41,779 nt of DNA, from the IMG/VR virus record IMGVR_UViG_2721755647_000004. One strand, 5' to 3'. The translations under genes were made by a program, and so were the position numbers. Source of the stretch: a virus. Its lineage: Duplodnaviria > Heunggongvirae > Uroviricota > Caudoviricetes. Shown in pieces: positions 21,801 through 41,779 of this stretch; positions within the stretch are counted from its first letter, which is position 1, and every line of letters starts with the position of its first letter. A model generated the notes under the pieces. The model did not search any database, was not told the origin of the DNA, and was given only the letters and a program-made list of their open reading frames with translations.

Positions 21801-21928
21801 GAAAGGACCCGAAAACGAGAATAATTATCACTTACAGCAAGAATCGAATCTGATCTATTATGGTGCTTGCTATTATGTGCCGGCACAAGTGCGTCGTTTA
21901 CCGTCATTTCACACAGAGGCATCATCAA

Positions 21929-26968: not shown

Positions 26969-27394
26969 AAGCTGTGTGACGAAGTAACCACTCTTAACAG
27001 CATAACCAATTTTTTACGTACGTAAACTACTAAATGATATTTGTGAGAATGCCACCGAGTGTTCAAAACACCACCACAAATGCATAAGAAAACTTCAACA
27101 AATAACCAGTTAATAATTTCCGATGTTATTTTTAGTTTGTTTAAATTAAGCTAAAGAATTATAGAGCACTTATAAATAAGTGCCATTAATATAAATTAGC
27201 TAATAGATTTATTTTTGTTCAGACAAGAGCCATGAATAGGATTAGATAGAAAAGGTTCCGATAAAAATAGAGATCTACTTCACAAATTAAATGAGAAACT
27301 AAAACTTACATCTTGAAATAATCACATTGATTAGATGAATATTTATCGCGCAGTGACATCATTTTTTAATAATAGTTCAAAAAAAGGGCGTACA

Positions 27395-30539: not shown

Positions 30540-30806
30540 GCTTCACCTCCGCAGAGATCAAACGCTGGATGCAAGACATCGCAGGTGCATTTCTGCATCT
30601 GTGACAAGGTGATGAGTTCAGATTGTGGTCGCATTTAAGTCCCCTTAAATGCGCAGAAGTCACCGGAGTTGTTCAGGCTCCGATGAGAGGATTATGGCGG
30701 ATTGATTACGATAAATCAAAACTATCTTGAAGCCAAAACAGTGATCTTCGCTTTAAAAACCTTGTATACTTTCACCTAATCACAGCCAGAACTATGGATC
30801 TAACCA

Positions 30807-31184
30807 ATGACCAACAAAGAAAACAAAGATAAATATATTAACAAGTTCAAGAAAGAGCTTTCAAAATATATACAACCAACTGCTGGAGTGGACATTCAAT
30901 TATTTAACTCTAAGGATGGTGGTGGTGTAATTAAAGCCACTTTGAATAGAAGTGGAAAAAGAAAATCATCTATTGCAGGTAATTTTACTAAATTAGGTGA
31001 GGCAATTACCTCGAGTGGGCAGAGGGTTTTTGGTGGTGATCTATCAAATGTAAATTTTTACGGAACAAATACGATTTTTGATGGAGATACAATATTTTTA
31101 ATTAAATCACCTGATTCAGAGGAGTGGTCATCACAAAAAGCTTCCAAAGACGTAGAGGGAATCGTATTTGGAGGGAAAAAATGA
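30807..31184 (+). CDS. hypothetical soluble protein, first gene of an AT-rich antisense two-gene module
   Basis: 125-aa Lys/Gly-rich ORF with no recognised domain; opposite strand to the flanking P and ninB genes; stop overlaps the next ATG (ATGA). Confidence 0.5.
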   Translation: MTNKENKDKYINKFKKELSKYIQPTAGVDIQLFNSKDGGGVIKATLNRSGKRKSSIAGNFTKLGEAITSSGQRVFGGDLSNVNFYGTNTIFDGDTIFLIKSPDSEEWSSQKASKDVEGIVFGGKK

Positions 31185-31609
31185 TTAACATTACTACTAA
31201 GGATGGCACTCAAGTCAGTGGTGAAGTAAGAGATCTAGTAATTCTTCTTGAAACTGATGGAAAAACGGTGTCTGATTATTTGCAGCCAATCCCTCCCAAA
31301 AAAGATACACACTGGAGCATGATTTTCATTCCGGTAGCAATTTATATACTACTTAATCTTGTATACATTATTGCTCACCCATTATTTCCTGAAAAATATC
31401 TAAAAACATCAACATCTATATTTCTATTCATTTCCTTCATATTAAGTGCAATAGTAGCATATTTTGTTTTCCATAAGCATAAATCTGCCACTCTATCCAT
31501 ATGCAGCTTAGTGTTCTTAGTGTTAATTGTAGGTGCTAACGTAGGGTTTATCAGTTACAGCGACCTAACACAAAAAGCGACGCAAAAATTAGATAGTTTG
31601 TCTAAATAA
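31181..31609 (+). CDS. hypothetical membrane protein (about three predicted TM helices), second gene of the module
   Basis: ATG at 31181 with GGAGGG Shine-Dalgarno six nt upstream. Short soluble N-terminus, then WSMIFIPVAIYILLNLVYIIA, SIFLFISFILSAIVAYFVF and LSICSLVFLVLIVGANVGFI. Confidence 0.55.
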   Translation: MINITTKDGTQVSGEVRDLVILLETDGKTVSDYLQPIPPKKDTHWSMIFIPVAIYILLNLVYIIAHPLFPEKYLKTSTSIFLFISFILSAIVAYFVFHKHKSATLSICSLVFLVLIVGANVGFISYSDLTQKATQKLDSLSK

Positions 31610-32401: not shown

Positions 32402-33417
32402 AGCTCCACCCCGTAAATCCAGTCAGTGTTTGTCAGGTCGAGTTTTGGTTTGCTGGCAGTCACACCAGCCTGTTGCTTGTTGCGGTTAATTTCGAGCTGA
32501 GTCCACTTGTCGCGGAGTTTTGCTGGACTCAGCACGTTACCGGACCAGAAGTTGTCCTGGCAGGCCCAGCGGAACAGAACGCACATGTCGCGATGGTTAC
32601 GCCCGTCACGCTCACGCATCAGGCGGATGTCGTTGGCCCACCCTGCAAAATTCGGTTTTCTGGCTGATGGCGCGATGGTCTTCACCATGTCAAACATCCA
32701 CTCTGCGGCGGTCAGGTCTTCTGCTGTCCCCCACTTGCTGCCGCTCTGAATTGCAGCATCCGGTTTCACCACAGGAAGATCGTTTTCTGGCTGGTCAGAG
32801 GATTCGCCAGAATTCTCGGACGAAAAAGGTTTTATATTGTCTTTTGTTAGTTTGTCTTTTGTGTTTACCTGATTCGGGTAAACGTCTTTACCTGATTTGG
32901 GTAAACTTTTCTTACCTGATTCAGGTAAATTTACCTCTTTCAGGTAAACTTTATTTTTCTTACCTGATTCGGGTAATGTTGACCATTCACTGACCACATT
33001 ATTAATGCCGATATTCCGCCCGCTCTGAATAAAAATCCCACGCTTTACCAGAACACTTTTTGCAGCAGAACACTTGTGCGGCAATATCCCGGTCAACTCG
33101 GAAAGTTGCTCGTTGCTCACCCAATCCAGTTTTTTATTAAAGCCATATGTTTTGCGCATGACAGCCAGGAAGACCAGAAGCTGGTGCTGTGTTAATCCGG
33201 CCAGCATCACAGCTTCCAGCAACTCATTTGCAATGCGCGTATAACCATCATCGAGATCTGCCACGCGCGGCTCCTTTTGTGCCACATCCGGCACTGGAAA
33301 ATTGAATATCTCAGCAGTGTTTGCCATAATTCCTCCCGCAATGAGTGTGTTACGATTTGCACCTGAAAGTCGGTTCTGTTCGCGCAGACCGGCTTTCGCC
33401 ATTTCTGAACCTGTCAT
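32398..33417 (-). CDS. O: replication initiator protein O
   Basis: 339 aa immediately upstream of P with the start overlapping the preceding gene; the replication origin iterons lie inside it (peptide repeats LPESGKK). Confidence 0.8.
   Translation of the reverse strand: MTGSEMAKAGLREQNRLSGANRNTLIAGGIMANTAEIFNFPVPDVAQKEPRVADLDDGYTRIANELLEAVMLAGLTQHQLLVFLAVMRKTYGFNKKLDWVSNEQLSELTGILPHKCSAAKSVLVKRGIFIQSGRNIGINNVVSEWSTLPESGKKNKVYLKEVNLPESGKKSLPKSGKDVYPNQVNTKDKLTKDNIKPFSSENSGESSDQPENDLPVVKPDAAIQSGSKWGTAEDLTAAEWMFDMVKTIAPSARKPNFAGWANDIRLMRERDGRNHRDMCVLFRWACQDNFWSGNVLSPAKLRDKWTQLEINRNKQQAGVTASKPKLDLTNTDWIYGVEL
32866..32976. repeat. ori iterons: five 18-bp repeats TTACCTGATTCGGGTAAA (variants) inside O
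   Basis: Copies at 32866, 32888, 32912, 32931 and 32960; each has inverted TTACC / GGTAA ends; flanked by an AT-rich stretch. Confidence 0.85.
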
Positions 33418-33959
33418 ATTGCCCCCAGCATGGTGGTGACCATCGCCATCAATGGACCAGCCAGATCCGGGTCCACACGAAACATCGACACAATGCCTTC
33501 ACTCATCTCCTTCAGTTTCTGGTGGCGTGGTGCGTTGAGAATGACAGCCTGTTTTGCCTCACTGAGTTCCTTTTCCATTTCAGCCAGCCGAGCCATGTAG
33601 CTATCCTGCTCAACCAGGTGGCCGCGATATTCCAGCGGTAGTACCGCCAGAATTGCCGGGGTCAGTTCACGCACGTTATTTCGGTATTTTTCAGAATCGA
33701 ATTTGTTATCGAGAAAGCGGAACAGCTTCTGGCGTGCACGGCTGACATCATCAGGGAAATCGATGGTGCCGCCGCCCTGCTCCCGATACTCATTCACAAT
33801 GAGTGCGGCAACAACATCCTGATTATCTGCAGCCGACCAGGCGCGAACGGCATCACGGATTTTTTCGTGGCCTGGCGCCTGTTTTGTTTGAGAACGATTT
33901 ATCACCGCAGTCGGGCTAAATCCGCTAGTCTGTTGGTATGTAAGTGGTTGCATAGTCAT
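33414..33959 (-). CDS. hypothetical protein in the cII position (possibly YdaT/CII-like)
   Basis: 181-aa ORF between cro and O with ATGA overlap onto O; not lambda CII (97 aa). The family assignment is from uncertain memory. Confidence 0.45.
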   Translation of the reverse strand: MTMQPLTYQQTSGFSPTAVINRSQTKQAPGHEKIRDAVRAWSAADNQDVVAALIVNEYREQGGGTIDFPDDVSRARQKLFRFLDNKFDSEKYRNNVRELTPAILAVLPLEYRGHLVEQDSYMARLAEMEKELSEAKQAVILNAPRHQKLKEMSEGIVSMFRVDPDLAGPLMAMVTTMLGAI

Positions 33960-33983
33960 TGCCTTATCAGTTAACGCCGCAGT

Positions 33984-34210
33984 TTAGGCGGCAGAATTAC
34001 TCGCGTTAAACAATGGTGCGAGGTCGGGACGAATATCTGCTGGTTTAATCTTTCCACCAGTGGCTGAGACAATTTTCATTACATAGCGGGCATCAATTCC
34101 GCCACCGTGTAGCCAACGCCAAACTGTGGGTTGGGCTACACCGCATAGATCTGCCAGTCGTTTTTGACTACCTGTAATACTGATTGCGAGTTGAATGGTT
34201 TGATTTGTCA
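33984..34210 (-). CDS. cro: Cro-like repressor (HTH)
   Basis: MTNQTIQLAISITGSQKRLADLCGVAQPTVWRWL...; divergent from cI across an operator region. Confidence 0.8.
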
Positions 34211-34321
34211 TTATCAATTCCTATTGGTATTGCAATGAATAAATAATAGCAATGCGTATTAATCCAAGCAATAGCAAAACGTGTTTTGACCATCAATACG
34301 CAAGCGTATAAATTAAAACTT
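34211..34321. promoter_or_regulatory. immunity-region right operator and pR/pRM region between cro and cI
   Basis: AT-rich divergent intergenic region with the AATAGCAA motif at 34245 and 34270 (25 bp apart); the same motif recurs at the putative left operator. Confidence 0.55.
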
Positions 34322-35014
34322 ATGAAAAAAGAAACTCTTGCTGATCGCTTAAACCTAGCGATGGAACAATCTGGAATGTCTCAAGGCGCTCTTGCAAAGG
34401 CGTCTGGCGTAGCTCAACCCACAATCTGGAGACTGACAAGCGGCAACGCGCGCGGCTCAACAAAAATTGTTGAAATAGCTAATGCATTGGGTGTTCGAAC
34501 AGAATGGCTCTCATCAGGCATAGGCCCGATGAGAAATGACGGTCAACAATCAGGGAAGCCTGCTGTCAGCTATTCCAAATACTTTAAAATTGACGTTCTT
34601 GATATAGAAGTGAGTGCCGGGCCGGGAGTCATCAACCGTGAGTTTGTAGAAGTTCTACGCTCGGTTGAGTACTCGTTTGACGATGCTCGTCACATGTTCG
34701 ATGGTAGGAAGGCAGAAAATATCCGCATCATTAACGTACGCGGTGACAGCATGTCAGGAACGATTGAACCTGGTGATCTTCTATTCGTTGATATCACGGT
34801 TAAATCTTTCGACGGTGATGGTATCTATGCGTTTCTGTACGACGACACAGCCCATGTAAAGCGCCTGCAAATGATGAAGGATAAGCTGCTGGTTATCTCT
34901 GATAACAAAAGCTACTCACCGTGGGACCCGATCGAGAAAGATGAGATGAACCGGGTATTTATCTTCGGGAAAGTTATTGGGAGCATGCCGCAGACGTATA
35001 GGAAGCATGGATAG
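34322..35014 (+). CDS. cI: CI-like prophage repressor (HTH_XRE plus S24 LexA-like peptidase domain)
   Basis: MKKETLADRLNLAMEQSGMSQGALAKASGVAQPTIWRL HTH; C-terminal RGDSMSGTIEPGDLLFVD ... KRL catalytic Ser/Lys motifs. An alternative TTG start lies at 34286. Confidence 0.9.
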   Translation: MKKETLADRLNLAMEQSGMSQGALAKASGVAQPTIWRLTSGNARGSTKIVEIANALGVRTEWLSSGIGPMRNDGQQSGKPAVSYSKYFKIDVLDIEVSAGPGVINREFVEVLRSVEYSFDDARHMFDGRKAENIRIINVRGDSMSGTIEPGDLLFVDITVKSFDGDGIYAFLYDDTAHVKRLQMMKDKLLVISDNKSYSPWDPIEKDEMNRVFIFGKVIGSMPQTYRKHG

Positions 35015-35094
35015 TACCAATTAAAAATTATCAACCGGGCATTGTGCTCATTCAGTAAAACAACTTAATTATTCATTTTAGAATGGAGAACTTA

Positions 35095-36156
35095 ATGGAT
35101 ACTTTAAAATATGAGAAATTCTCTGATTTTGATCACAATGACCCATTTTTTGACTCTTTAAAAAAAGATTATAAAGAGTTTCCTCTTTGGTTAGAAAAAA
35201 AAGCCAGAGAAGGAGAATCAGCTTATGTGCTCTATGATGACAAGCATAAAATCGAAGGTTTTATGTATCTAAAAGAAAATGATGATGCAAATGACATTAA
35301 TCCAGCGCTCCCACCAGGACGTCATCTAAAGATAGGAACATTCAAATTTGAATCTAAAGGCACCCTTCGCGGACAACGATTTCTAAAAAAAGCGTTTGAC
35401 CATGCATTTTCATCAAAATCTGATGATATTTATGTTACTGTTTTCGACAAACACGTCCATCTAATAAAACTTTTCCAAACGTACGGATTTTACATTCATG
35501 GTGAAAAAGAAACACATAACGGGAAAGAGTTTGTATATGCGAGGTCTTTGCATGAGCCTTATGGTGATATTTTATTAGATTACCCTCGAATAATGACATC
35601 AAGGGCCAACAAATATTTACTGGCGATTTATCCCGAATATCACACTAGACTATTCCCTGATTCAAAACTTGTAAATGAATCACCAGATATTGTCAAAGAT
35701 ATATCCCATGCTAACAGCATTCATAAAATTTACATATGTGGAATGCGTTCTGTGATGGGAATGAAAAGAGGAGATATCATTGTCATCTATAGAACCGGAG
35801 ACAAAAAAGGGCCAGCTCGCTATCGTTCTGTAGCCAGTACATTATGTGTAGTTGAGAGCGTAAAAAATATTTCTGAATTTTTAAGCGAAGATAGTTTTGT
35901 AGACTATTGTATTCGTTTTAGCGTATTTTCTGAAGATGAACTCAGAAAAATCTATAAAGAACGTCGATACCCTTTCATTATAAGATTCACATACAATCTG
36001 TCTTTGCCAAAGAGACCCAATCGTGCTATTTTAATAGATCATGTGGGGCTAAATGGTTCGCGTGCATTCCGATGGAGTCACTTTAAACTCACAAATGAGC
36101 AGTTCTTAAAGATCATCGAGTTAGGCAAGATAAATGAAAGTTTTATTATCCATTAA
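35095..36156 (+). CDS. hypothetical protein, first gene of the rex-position cassette; N-terminal GNAT-like fold and C-terminal PUA/ASCH-like region suspected
   Basis: ATG at 35095 with GGAG six nt upstream; about 353 aa; AT-rich; 80 nt downstream of the cI stop on the same strand. Domain calls come from motif inspection only. Confidence 0.55.
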   Translation: MDTLKYEKFSDFDHNDPFFDSLKKDYKEFPLWLEKKAREGESAYVLYDDKHKIEGFMYLKENDDANDINPALPPGRHLKIGTFKFESKGTLRGQRFLKKAFDHAFSSKSDDIYVTVFDKHVHLIKLFQTYGFYIHGEKETHNGKEFVYARSLHEPYGDILLDYPRIMTSRANKYLLAIYPEYHTRLFPDSKLVNESPDIVKDISHANSIHKIYICGMRSVMGMKRGDIIVIYRTGDKKGPARYRSVASTLCVVESVKNISEFLSEDSFVDYCIRFSVFSEDELRKIYKERRYPFIIRFTYNLSLPKRPNRAILIDHVGLNGSRAFRWSHFKLTNEQFLKIIELGKINESFIIH

Positions 36157-36511
36157 GCCTGAGTTTGCAGAAAAAATATTGAACGGAACAAAGCGGTTCG
36201 AGTTTCGTAAAGGTATATTCAAAAATCCGCAAATTAGCACCGTTGTTATTTATGCCACGATGCCATTAGGTAAAGTTGTTGGTCAATTCCGTATTGAATC
36301 AATACTAAGTGACGAACCGGAATCTCTTTGGAAAAAGACGGAAAAGCACGCAGGTATTTCTAAGCAATTTTATGACTCATATTATTCAGGTAGAGAAAAG
36401 GCCTACGCAATAAAAATTGGTGAAGTGGAAAGATATAAAGAACCAATTCCTATCTCTGCTCTAGGTAGTAATATTAAGCCACCACAATCATATCTTTACC
36501 TACCTGCGTAA
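36134..36511 (+). CDS. ASCH-domain protein, second gene of the rex-position cassette
   Basis: 125 aa; N-terminal NGTKRFEFRKG fits the ASCH GxKxxExR motif; overlaps the preceding gene by 23 nt. Confidence 0.6.
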   Translation: MKVLLSIKPEFAEKILNGTKRFEFRKGIFKNPQISTVVIYATMPLGKVVGQFRIESILSDEPESLWKKTEKHAGISKQFYDSYYSGREKAYAIKIGEVERYKEPIPISALGSNIKPPQSYLYLPA

Positions 36512-36515
36512 GAAT

Positions 36516-36542
36516 CCCGGCCACCGTGCCGGGTTTTCTTTT
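36516..36542 (+). terminator. rho-independent terminator ending the cI-cassette transcription unit
   Basis: Stem cccggc/gccggg (36516..36521 and 36528..36533), loop caccgt, followed by ttttctttt. Confidence 0.7.
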
Positions 36543-36639
36543 GTCCCCTCATCACACAAACCGTTCGAAAAACCACCACATCCTCCCTTCAGTTATCGCT
36601 ATGCGATGCAAGTCACAAAATTAATTCTTTTTGCTATCA

Positions 36640-36780
36640 AACATTTAATATCAAAACACATCAACCAATAGCAATAAGTATTGATATCACCAATAGCAAT
36701 AGCTATTATCACCATATCGCAACAACACAACGATACGGCAACCACCTGATTCACCGTTGCGATGACCGCTTAGATCCGCA
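36640..36780. promoter_or_regulatory. putative left operator and pL region
   Basis: CAATAGCAAT repeated at 36666 and 36691 (25 bp apart) with TATCACC-containing elements; lies between the terminator and the leftward early genes. Confidence 0.5.
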
Positions 36781-36782
36781 GT

Positions 36783-37193
36783 TTGAATTTCAGCAGGCTT
36801 CGGGGAGTGCGAGGGGTGAAACGGACGCGTGAACGTCGGTGTGACCAGCTGAAATTAACTCAACATTTCATACCTCAGTCGCTTCAACGAGGCGGTTTAG
36901 TTATGACAACCGGCGGCCATCCACCGCCTGAATACGCGCAGAAGTCTCTATATGTTCAGCAGCCCAGCTTACGGGCAGGAGTTTTTATGGTTCATCAACA
37001 TTACGGAACACAGACCGTTAATCGCGGTGCGGTCATGCCAGGAATGCTGGTCAAACACAAAGATGGTACCTGGACTGCATCAGCTAATTTACGCGGACGG
37101 CTTTATCTGCATCGCGGCATCGAGCGCACTTATACCCGTGACTTGCTCGTGGAAGTTTTTCTCGACGGACGCGGCAACGGCCTGAATCACTAA
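36783..37193 (+). CDS. hypothetical early-left protein with Arg-rich N-terminus (possible N-like antiterminator or other pL gene)
   Basis: 136-aa ORF; N-terminus [15 protein letters not shown]; alternative ATG at 36903 with GAGG upstream. No family recognised. Confidence 0.35.
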
Positions 37194-37267
37194 CCCCCTT
37201 TCCTGTTTTCCTAATCAGCCTGGCATTTCGCGGGCGATATTTTCACAGCTATTTCAGGAGTTCAGCC

Positions 37268-37564
37268 ATGAACGCTTATTACATTCAGGATCGTCTTGAG
37301 GCTCAGAGCTGGGTGCGTCACTACCAGCAGATCGCCCGTGAAGAGAAAGAGGCAGAACTGGCAGACGACATGGAAAAAGGCCTGCCCCAGCACCTGTTTG
37401 AATCGCTATGCATCGATCATTTGCAACGCCACGGGGCCAGCAAAAAAGCCATTACCCGTGCGTTTGATGACGATGTTGAGTTTCAGGAGCGCATGGCAGA
37501 ACACATCCGGTACATGGTTGAAACCATTGCTCACCATCAGGTTGATATTGATTCAGAGGTATAA
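37268..37564 (+). CDS. gam: Gam host-nuclease inhibitor, short form
   Basis: [60 protein letters not shown]... matches lambda Gam residues 41 to 138. Confidence 0.95.
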
Positions 37565-40410: not shown

Positions 40411-40647
40411 ATGTCTCGACTAATCACTTTACAGGACTGGGCTAAAGAAGAATTTGGGGACTTAGCACCAAGTGAGCGAGTTCTGAAAAAATACGCGCAA
40501 GGGAAAATGATGGCCCCACCCGCTATAAAAGTTGGTCGCTACTGGATGATTGACCGAAATTCCCGTTTTGTAGGAACGCTTGCAGAACCGCAACTCCCAA
40601 TAAACGCAAACCCAAAACTCCAACGGATAATCGCTGATGGCTGCTAG
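40411..40647 (+). CDS. xis: excisionase-like protein
   Basis: 78 aa directly upstream of and overlapping int; AGGAGG Shine-Dalgarno at 40390..40395. Confidence 0.65.
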   Translation: MSRLITLQDWAKEEFGDLAPSERVLKKYAQGKMMAPPAIKVGRYWMIDRNSRFVGTLAEPQLPINANPKLQRIIADGC

Positions 40648-41779
40648 ACCCCGATCTCACAAAATCTCTATACCCAATTTATATTGCAAATTAGATAAGC
40701 GAACCGGAAAGGTATATTGGCAATACAAACATCCACTATCCGGTCGTTTTCATAGCTTAGGAACTGATGAGAATGAAGCAAAACAAGTTGCTACTGAAGC
40801 AAATACCATTATTGCTGAACAACGTACCCGACAAATATTAAGCGTCAATGAGCGTCTGGAAAGAATGAAAGGCAGGCGCTCAGACATTACGGTGACAGAA
40901 TGGCTTGATAAATATATTTCTATCCAGGAGGACAGGCTGCAACATAATGAACTAAGACCCAACTCCTATCGGCAAAAAGGCAAACCCATTCGTCTTTTCC
41001 GTGAGCATTGTGGAATACAACACCTCAAGGATATTACCGCACTTGATATTGCCGAAATAATTGATGCTGTAAAGGCTGAAGGTCATAACAGGATGGCGCA
41101 AGTCGTGAGAATGGTGTTAATCGACGTCTTCAAAGAAGCACAACACGCAGGACATGTTCCGCCAGGATTTAACCCAGCGCAGGCAACAAAACAACCGCGA
41201 AATCGAGTAAACCGCCAAAGATTATCACTGCCCGAATGGCAGGCAATATTTGACAGCGTAAGCAGACGGCAGCCCTATTTAAAATGCGGGATGCTACTTG
41301 CTCTTGTCACTGGACAACGTTTAGGCGATATCTGCAATTTGAAATTCTCTGATATCTGGGACGACATGTTGCACATTACTCAGAAAAAAACCGGTTCAAA
41401 ACTTGCTATTCCGCTTAACCTGAAATGCGATGCTCTGAATATTACCCTTCGTGAAGTTATATCTCAGTGCAGGGATGCTGTTGTTAGTAAATATCTGGTC
41501 CATTACCGTCACACAACCTCTCAAGCAAACAGAGGAGACCAGGTTTCTGCGAATACTCTGACAACGGCTTTTAAAAAGGCCAGGGAAAAATGTGGCATAA
41601 AATGGGAGCAAGGAACTGCGCCCACATTTCATGAGCAGCGATCTCTGTCAGAACGGTTATATCGGGAACAGGGTCTGGATACGCAAAAGTTGTTAGGCCA
41701 TAAATCCAGAAAAATGACCGACCGATACAATGATGATCGTGGTAAAGACTGGATTATCGTAGATATCAAAACAGCATAG
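40637..41779 (+). CDS. int: tyrosine-type phage integrase
   Basis: 380 aa with C-terminal catalytic-domain motifs (R...HEQRS ... LLGHKS...Y); the stop codon is the last three bases of the window. Confidence 0.9.
   Translation: MAARPRSHKISIPNLYCKLDKRTGKVYWQYKHPLSGRFHSLGTDENEAKQVATEANTIIAEQRTRQILSVNERLERMKGRRSDITVTEWLDKYISIQEDRLQHNELRPNSYRQKGKPIRLFREHCGIQHLKDITALDIAEIIDAVKAEGHNRMAQVVRMVLIDVFKEAQHAGHVPPGFNPAQATKQPRNRVNRQRLSLPEWQAIFDSVSRRQPYLKCGMLLALVTGQRLGDICNLKFSDIWDDMLHITQKKTGSKLAIPLNLKCDALNITLREVISQCRDAVVSKYLVHYRHTTSQANRGDQVSANTLTTAFKKAREKCGIKWEQGTAPTFHEQRSLSERLYREQGLDTQKLLGHKSRKMTDRYNDDRGKDWIIVDIKTA

Follow-up and report, generated by a model that had tools for sequence, protein, structure and literature searches.

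Putative OR and OL operators of one sequence type in the immunity region of a lambda-like prophage

A short motif recurs on the two sides of an immunity region, and the question is whether its copies are the OR and OL operators of one repressor specificity, and of which one. The window studied here, that is the whole stretch of 41,779 nucleotides (1-41779), looks like a lambda-like prophage that is almost complete and runs in inverted orientation. The low coordinates are taken up by the tail genes, the head genes and the terminase; the lysis/Q/nin region, P, O and a YdaT gene come next, and after them cro, cI, cargo, kil, gam, bet, exo and an ORF at 40637-41779 up to the right end. This layout is taken from the order and size of the ORFs, and family-library scans covered the immunity-region proteins only. 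No tRNA genes are found in the window.

Sites of one type in OR and OL

A sequence-only reading of this DNA had noted the motif AATAGCAA between cro and cI, and again beyond the cassette that follows cI, with a spacing of 25 bp. The 8-mer is indeed present on the + strand at 34245, 34270, 36667 and 36692, its longer form CAATAGCAAT at 36666 and 36691, and the spacing is exact in both pairs, in OR as well as in OL. Scanning both strands of the whole window yields six copies against 1.48 expected, a number reached in none of 100 dinucleotide shuffles of the window, and the two outlying copies, at 21867 and 41403 (- strand), have no full 16-bp site. Such a site is a pseudo-palindrome, AATAGC-N4-(G/C)(C/G)TATT, with AATAGCAA as its left half. 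The outer AATA/TATT is almost invariant and positions 5-6 are either GC or CG, the variant half being AATACG. The dyad symmetry is imperfect in that positions 5-6 flip between GC and CG, and only 5 of 8 pairs are symmetric in OR1. Centres of the half-sites stand 10 bp, one helical turn, apart, which would fit a dimeric helix-turn-helix protein.

The cro-cI intergenic region (34211-34321) has 110 bp, from the cro ATG at 34211 on the - strand to the cI ATG at 34322, and both starts agree with the annotation of the near-identical phage 4A7. It carries three 16-bp sites in steps of 25 bp, starting at 34245, 34270 and 34295 (Table 1); the third had been missed before because it lacks the AATAGCAA 8-mer. 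OR1 is located between the -35 and -10 of the predicted PR and overlaps the -10, OR2 overlaps the PR -35 by 2 bp, adjoins the PRM -35 and is centred near -43/-44, and OR3 falls within the spacer and -10 of the predicted PRM. The promoter scan does not call PR because its -35 hexamer is weak, with 3 of 6 consensus matches. Its layout is that of PL, namely a -35, 5 nt, and a 16-bp operator whose last 4 bp begin the -10, with the next operator overlapping the -35 by 2 bp, and in a Klebsiella phage both promoters read TTGCTA-17-TATTAT. The PRM -10 ends 7 nt before the cI ATG and a Shine-Dalgarno sequence is absent there, so transcription probably starts around 34321-34322, at the cI AUG itself, and the cI mRNA would be leaderless.

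Beyond cI, OL has two strong sites over PL with the geometry of OR1 and OR2 at PR. OL1 is placed between the PL -35 and -10, and the -10 begins with the last 4 bp of the site, as at OR1. PL ranks second among the eight promoter-like matches in 33900-37000, tied for the top score of 10/12. The distance from OR to OL is about 2.4 kb.

Table 1. Features of the immunity region, by position in the window
Feature	Position	Strand	Sequence	Remarks
cro-like gene	33984-34211	-		75 aa; YdaS / P22-Cro-type helix-turn-helix; Pfam YdaS_toxin 9.6e-15
Candidate fourth OR site	34216-34231		AATTCCTATTGGTATT	sixth-best matrix match in the window, 16.3
PR (predicted)	34243-34271	-	TTGCTT-17-TATTAT	-35 at 34271->34266, 17-nt spacer, -10 at 34248->34243; read from sequence
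OR1	34245-34260		AATAGCAATGCGTATT	top matrix score in the window, 22.3
OR2	34270-34285		AATAGCAAAACGTGTT	motif and matrix match
PRM (predicted)	34286-34314	+	TTGACC-17-TAAATT	promoter scan
OR3	34295-34310		AATACGCAAGCGTATA	repeat finder (D1, I1); matrix score 17.8
cI repressor gene	34322-35014	+		230 aa; Pfam HTH_3 and Peptidase_S24
Two-gene cargo, rex position	35083-36511	+		357-aa protein and 125-aa ASCH-domain protein
Intrinsic terminator	36516-36541	+		terminator scan; ends the cI-cassette transcript before OL
Candidate OL3	36623-36638		AATTCTTTTTGCTATC	2 mismatches to the pattern; weak matrix score, 9.1
OL2	36667-36682		AATAGCAATAAGTATT	matrix score 20.1; overlaps PL -35 by 2 bp
PL	36681-36709	+	TTGATA-17-TATTAT	transcribes toward kil-gam-bet-exo
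OL1	36692-36707		AATAGCAATAGCTATT	matrix score 21.1; 7 of 8 dyad pairs symmetric

The sites are also recovered by a position weight matrix trained only on sites of the Salmonella phage ST160 and a Klebsiella phage, some of which (OR2 and OR3) are identical to those of the window itself. The six top matches in the window all fall within 34216-34310 and 36667-36707. Composition-matched block shuffles have maxima with a mean of 13.2, going up to 21.3; single matrix scores are therefore not decisive, and the argument rests on clustering, spacing and conservation. The matches at 27026 and 12507 are set aside, their scores lying within the shuffle range, and AATCCCCTTTCCTGTT, a high match after kil, is rejected as an operator because the type-B phages described below have it too. 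As a separate matter, the TATCACC-like TATCACCA occurs twice inside OL/PL, 22 bp apart (36685-36692 and 36707-36714). As a pair of lambda-like half-sites (TATCACC) it is rejected and probably reflects chance, since it is conserved neither in 4A7 nor in the Klebsiella phage.

Replacement of the operators together with the CI N-terminal domain

We then consider the proteins that may read these sites. The N-terminal domain of CI is 434-like, with the recognition helix QPTIWRL, and its closest solved structure is the 434 repressor (E = 1.6e-5, residues 7-66), while a PDB search places the C-terminal domain closest to UmuD. Ala99-Gly100, Ser143 and Lys180 do not vary and correspond in alignments to the cleavage and catalytic residues of UmuD and of lambda CI. 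The Cro-like protein has PDB matches in Xfaso-1 Cro (3bd1) and XPH1 (5w8y). It is 69-81% identical to the Cro of Salmonella and Klebsiella phages with the immunity of the window, called type A here, and 47% identical to Cro of the type-B phages. The recognition helices of the two proteins are nearly alike, GVAQPTIWRL in CI and GVAQPTVWRW in Cro, and because of this likeness (QPTIWR and QPTVWR) Cro very probably binds the sites of CI. The gene annotated 'cII' in related phages (33414-33959, - strand) belongs to the YdaT family (PF06254, 2.4e-29) and is not a homologue of lambda CII; together with the YdaS-type Cro it points to a switch of the Rac/CP-933P kind. DNA-damaging bacteriocins induce the phages 4C10 and 4A7 (bioRxiv 10.64898/2026.05.26.727859), which are 98.9% identical to the window over 33900-36900, and such induction agrees with an S24 repressor.

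Overall, the sites stand out in a phylogenetic footprint. In an ungapped OR alignment of five phages from Escherichia, Salmonella and Klebsiella, variation is seen in 3 of the 48 operator columns against 31 of the 62 other intergenic columns (Fisher p = 3e-7). Variation is limited to the two central columns in OR1 and to 1 of 16 columns in OR3, and is absent from OR2; the PRM hexamers are invariant across the genera. Prophages of Kluyvera intermedia, K. cryocrescens, K. georgiana, Citrobacter pasteurii and Raoultella lignicola have the helix-turn-helix of the window's CI, with sites at -77, -52 and -27 from the cI ATG, as in the window, and with a further 25-bp pair 1.8-2.9 kb downstream. None of the type-A sites is present in a prophage of Klebsiella grimontii, which has a type-B helix. 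An O157:H7 prophage shares the OR of the window, and although its OL context has diverged, two strong sites 25 bp apart are kept over TTGACT-17-TATTGT. Taken together, the site positions are conserved in at least eight species. Of 5426 complete E. coli genomes, 718 (13%) have the type-A OR, and 265 have the window's version of OL. The result is a testable operator map for this immunity type, whose E. coli carriers include UPEC 536 and O157:H7 strains and which is also found in prophages of Salmonella, Klebsiella, Kluyvera, Citrobacter and Raoultella.

The heteroimmune relatives are of special value here. The type-B phages PhiR47_2, PhiR5_1 and PhiR34_1 have the CI C-terminal domain, the YdaT gene and the flanks in common with the window, with 96-98% identity in the YdaT gene and about 90-96% in cI from codon 46 on. 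They cannot be aligned with it over 33955-34457, which covers cro, OR and cI codons 1-45, and OL is replaced over 36624-36715, a block of 92 bp. Both OR and OL of type B carry ACAACC/GGTTGT dyads in place of the window motif. A Klebsiella phage of type C, with a third N-terminal domain, has GAAC/GTAC-N7-GTAC/GTTC dyads, again in OR and OL. OR and OL of type A have 10-24 seven-mers in common and those of type B 15-17, whereas comparisons between types give 0-7. These comparisons uphold the proposal that OR and OL belong to one operator type, the motif being replaced at both in heteroimmune relatives together with the CI recognition helix and Cro. The likeness of OR and OL is not a by-product of linkage through the cassette, since PhiR47_2 combines the window's own cargo cassette with type-B immunity. 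The boundaries of the immunity module are thereby fixed at 33955-34457 plus 36624-36715. Types A, B and C each show their own operator motifs with one CI C-terminal domain and one promoter scaffold, and so amount to natural orthogonal repressor/operator pairs on one scaffold.

In addition to the five sites, two more positions are candidates. The one at 34216-34231, a possible extra operator, covers the cro ribosome-binding site, at about +5 to +20 of the predicted PR transcript, and stands 29 bp from OR1. Its counterpart is found 28-29 bp before OR1 in every type-A relative scanned, ST160, the Klebsiella phage and five other species among them, with listed scores of 12.2-16.3, and type B likewise has a type-specific dyad over its own cro ribosome-binding site. 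Variation affects 6 of the 16 columns of this site, and the Shine-Dalgarno sequence of cro falls in its left half. The candidate OL3 is in essence a single good half-site, 44 bp upstream of OL2. Its -44 offset is kept in ST160, the Klebsiella phage, the O157 prophage and CKJ, and it falls in the immunity-specific 92-bp block. As an operator it is a candidate only, either weak or confounded with a conserved flank.

The proposed switch and its alternatives

The arrangement agrees with that of a lambdoid CI/Cro switch on four points: divergent genes for a repressor (HTH + S24) and a Cro-like protein surround a short intergenic region, at least three dyad sites in OR lie over two divergent promoters, a second operator cluster of the same type lies over an outward early promoter beyond cI, and, when heteroimmune relatives are compared, a change of the repressor recognition helix goes with a change of operator sequence. 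Where the sites lie, how they are arranged, how well they are conserved and how they change along with the repressor are direct observations, and on the strength of these sequence comparisons we hold it very likely that the sites serve as OR and OL in a bistable CI/Cro switch of the lambda type.

In a lysogen, dimers of CI would occupy the 16-bp sites with the consensus AATAGC-N4-GCTATT. With dimers on OR1+OR2 and OL1+OL2, the -10 and -35 of PR and PL would be covered, and neither the cro/replication operon nor the kil-gam-bet-exo operon would be expressed. CI on OR2, adjoining the PRM -35, would probably activate PRM, and OR3 inside PRM would serve negative autoregulation of cI; an order of occupancy among the sites and looping between OL and OR would presumably belong to the same scheme. 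The PRM transcript, probably leaderless for cI, would run on through the cargo genes to the terminator at 36516. After DNA damage, RecA-stimulated cleavage of CI at Ala99-Gly100 would lead to induction, and Cro, of the YdaS family, would most likely act on the sites of CI.

Among the other readings, the one that survives best, although we regard it as improbable, is that the repeats bind only Cro or the YdaT-type CII analogue and that CI reads something else nearby. Cro is swapped along with the operators, so that co-variation alone does not point to CI; indeed, this comparison cannot assign a protein to a site, because CI, Cro and operators are inherited as one module. A site with one mismatch to the CP-933P YdaT repeat TTGATT-N6-AATCAA is also present at 34200-34217, over the cro start codon. 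Yet the exchange of operators goes with an exchange of CI residues 1-45, including helix 3, with the remainder of CI kept, and CI and Cro have a common helix in each type, QPT(I/V)WR in type A and VSQ.A(I/V).K in type B. A relative (L019) with another CI C-terminal part, 56% identical overall, nevertheless has the same N-terminal domain and sites. The repeat finder detects no other repeated dyad in the 110-bp OR, and the YdaT gene lies outside the swapped block, its product being only distantly related to CP-933P YdaT.

Operators of a CI/Cro switch are also preferred to the reading, more doubtful still, that OR and OL are alike merely as paralogous promoters, i.e. as PR/PL copies or UP/-35 elements with no operator function. 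The -10 TATTAT and its spacing to the repeats are identical in PR and PL, as such copies would have them. The -35 hexamers, however, differ (TTGCTT and TTGATA) while the 16-bp units are kept, and a third unit occurs in PRM, on the opposite strand and in another promoter context. The units are dyad-symmetric and do not diverge, whereas the spacers between them diverge freely, and a single promoter scaffold is combined with a different matched OR/OL motif in each of three immunity types. Chance recurrence in AT-rich intergenic DNA, to which the AT-rich OR and OL and the occasional high score in block shuffles might lend some colour, is effectively refuted by the comparative data, that is by the positions conserved across species and the footprint, and runs against the shuffle result for the 8-mer and the common 25-bp spacing of both regions.

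Known immunity types and the cargo slot

The comparison with known immunity types puts the window nearest to the 'ST104' type and matches it with none of the imm-lambda, imm-434 and CP-933P motifs, which bears out the suggestion of a specificity unlike that of lambda. Half-sites of the TATCACCGC type, as in the 17-bp imm-lambda operators, are absent from 34212-34321 and 36616-36715 at up to one mismatch; the 14-bp imm-434 operator ACAA-N6-TTGT has no match in the whole window; and CP-933P GTTTAGTAA, an 18-bp palindrome consensus, is not found in OR or OL at up to one mismatch. A literature search found no paper containing any of the six site sequences.

For lambda, the operators, the leaderless cI mRNA, the rexAB genes and the OR-OL distance are well established. 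The window resembles it in the divergent cI and cro, in three OR operators interlocked with PR and PRM and in OL over PL, as well as in an HTH + S24 repressor that has the Ala-Gly, Ser and Lys residues, in a cI mRNA that is probably leaderless, in the accessory genes placed between cI and a terminator (rexAB in lambda) and in an OR-OL distance of about 2.4 kb. It is unlike lambda in having 16-bp AATAGC-N4-GCTATT operators with a centre-to-centre spacing of 25 bp in place of the 17-bp TATCACCGC type, a CI only about 25% identical to lambda CI, a YdaS/P22-Cro-like Cro, a YdaT-family 'CII', and no N gene after PL. Conceptually, this standard lambda-style OR/OL system leaves the lambda paradigm unchanged. 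Helix 3 begins with a glutamine here as in the 434 repressor, but it reads QPTIWRL in the window and QQSIEQL in 434.

The repressor of ST104, SE1 and ST160 was recognised as a distinct type by Villafane et al. 2008 (PMC2629481, Table 1), where no operator is described. CI of the window is 86% identical to ST160 C2, with residues 18-58 of the helix-turn-helix 100% identical, and ST160 has the same three OR and two OL sites in the same geometry. The DNA-binding domain is thus essentially identical to that of ST104/ST160 C2, and the immC sites are the same. Unlike the window, ST160 has a P22-like genome with gp24 (N analogue) after PL, and its C1 (transcriptional activator, the cII counterpart) and cargo genes differ. 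Judged by sequence, the immunity of the window is of the 'ST104-type' specificity, which is very common and whose operator sequence appears to have had no earlier experimental study. Cross-immunity with this type we only infer, because the 92% whole-protein threshold of PMC2629481 is not reached.

In architecture, the closest experimentally dissected relative is CP-933P of E. coli O157:H7 with its PaaR2/YdaS/YdaT switch (PMC8630535, PMC9986795). There the CI analogue and a YdaS-type Cro footprint on shared OR repeats, four in number, PL is regulated and has matching OL1-3, the repressor mRNA is leaderless, and a toxin-antitoxin cargo stands directly behind the repressor (PMC8630535). The YdaS-type Cro and YdaT-type CII analogue are alike in both, and the four OR sites of CP-933P resemble the possible fourth site here. 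On the other hand, PaaR2 is a protein of 15 kDa whereas the window CI has an S24 autocleavage domain, and YdaT is only about 30% identical. Besides the imperfect copy over the cro start, a perfect copy of the CP-933P YdaT repeat is observed at 30702-30719, upstream of two AT-rich ORFs on the + strand (30807-31609). A CP-933P-like YdaT site is set aside, the window YdaT being distantly related and the CP-933P site being located at the other end of ydaS.

The early-left part is best compared with phi80 (JX871397), in which cI, one cargo gene and OL3-OL2-OL1 with pL follow in the same manner, with OL1 over the -10 and OL2 over the -35. The annotated phi80 OL3 is 44 bp upstream of OL2, an offset equal to that of the window's OL3 candidate. 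A Kil homologue downstream and a tL1A-like stretch are further features in common. The operators (AAATCCACA...) are unrelated, and phi80 has nutL and N while the window has neither; no N-like antiterminator gene is found between PL and kil (36716-36986). In the window kil occupies 36987-37190 (PRK11354, 1.8e-17), and the 270-nt leader between PL and kil is conserved in both immunity types, with 36866-36926 resembling the phi80 tL1A terminator region. Kinship with HK022 is rejected, since HK022 gives no match and the sole match is a phi80/HK225 tL1A-like stretch. No Rfam match to a put-like or other known RNA is obtained in 36400-37300 at E <= 1, and the fold of the leader is no better than that of shuffles (z = 0.72).

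Finally, the placement of the cassette inside the immunity region, as proposed by the sequence-only reading, holds: it lies between the cI stop (35014) and the terminator (36516-36533 in the terminator scan), upstream of OL and within the OR-OL interval, a position that parallels rexAB between cI and OL in lambda. The two genes match the PADLOC candidate defence system PDC-M11 (A 2.9e-133, B 6.8e-52), B being a Pfam ASCH protein. Comparison with PhiR70_1 and Perceval delimits the cargo slot to 35015-36515, from directly after the cI stop up to the terminator, and the terminator is kept behind every cargo variant. The slot is an exchangeable cargo hot spot, a rex-position place for defence genes with transcription from the predicted PRM, and is relevant to forecasting superinfection immunity, prophage induction and the expression of prophage-borne defence systems.

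A wider picture may be drawn only tentatively, and we rate it as somewhat less probable than an even chance. It would be a distinct and very common immunity type whose 16-bp AATAGC-N4-GCTATT operators are read by a 434-like CI and a YdaS-type Cro through convergent QPT(I/V)WR helices. Its sites would outnumber those of lambda, with a fourth one in OR that covers the cro ribosome-binding site and with an OL3 placed 44 bp before OL2, and an OR-OL loop would enclose an exchangeable anti-phage cargo slot. If this is true, defence genes would be wired straight to the lysogenic promoter.

As for the cargo itself, the pair is labelled GevT toxin / GevA antitoxin in GenBank PV340567, and protein A is called an N-acetyltransferase by RefSeq; no relevant paper on GevT/GevA, PDC-M11 or the PhiR phages was found in a literature search. 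In relatives with the same flanks, the slot contains HipA/HipD, a SIR2-family protein, various hypothetical genes, or only a remnant of the ASCH gene.
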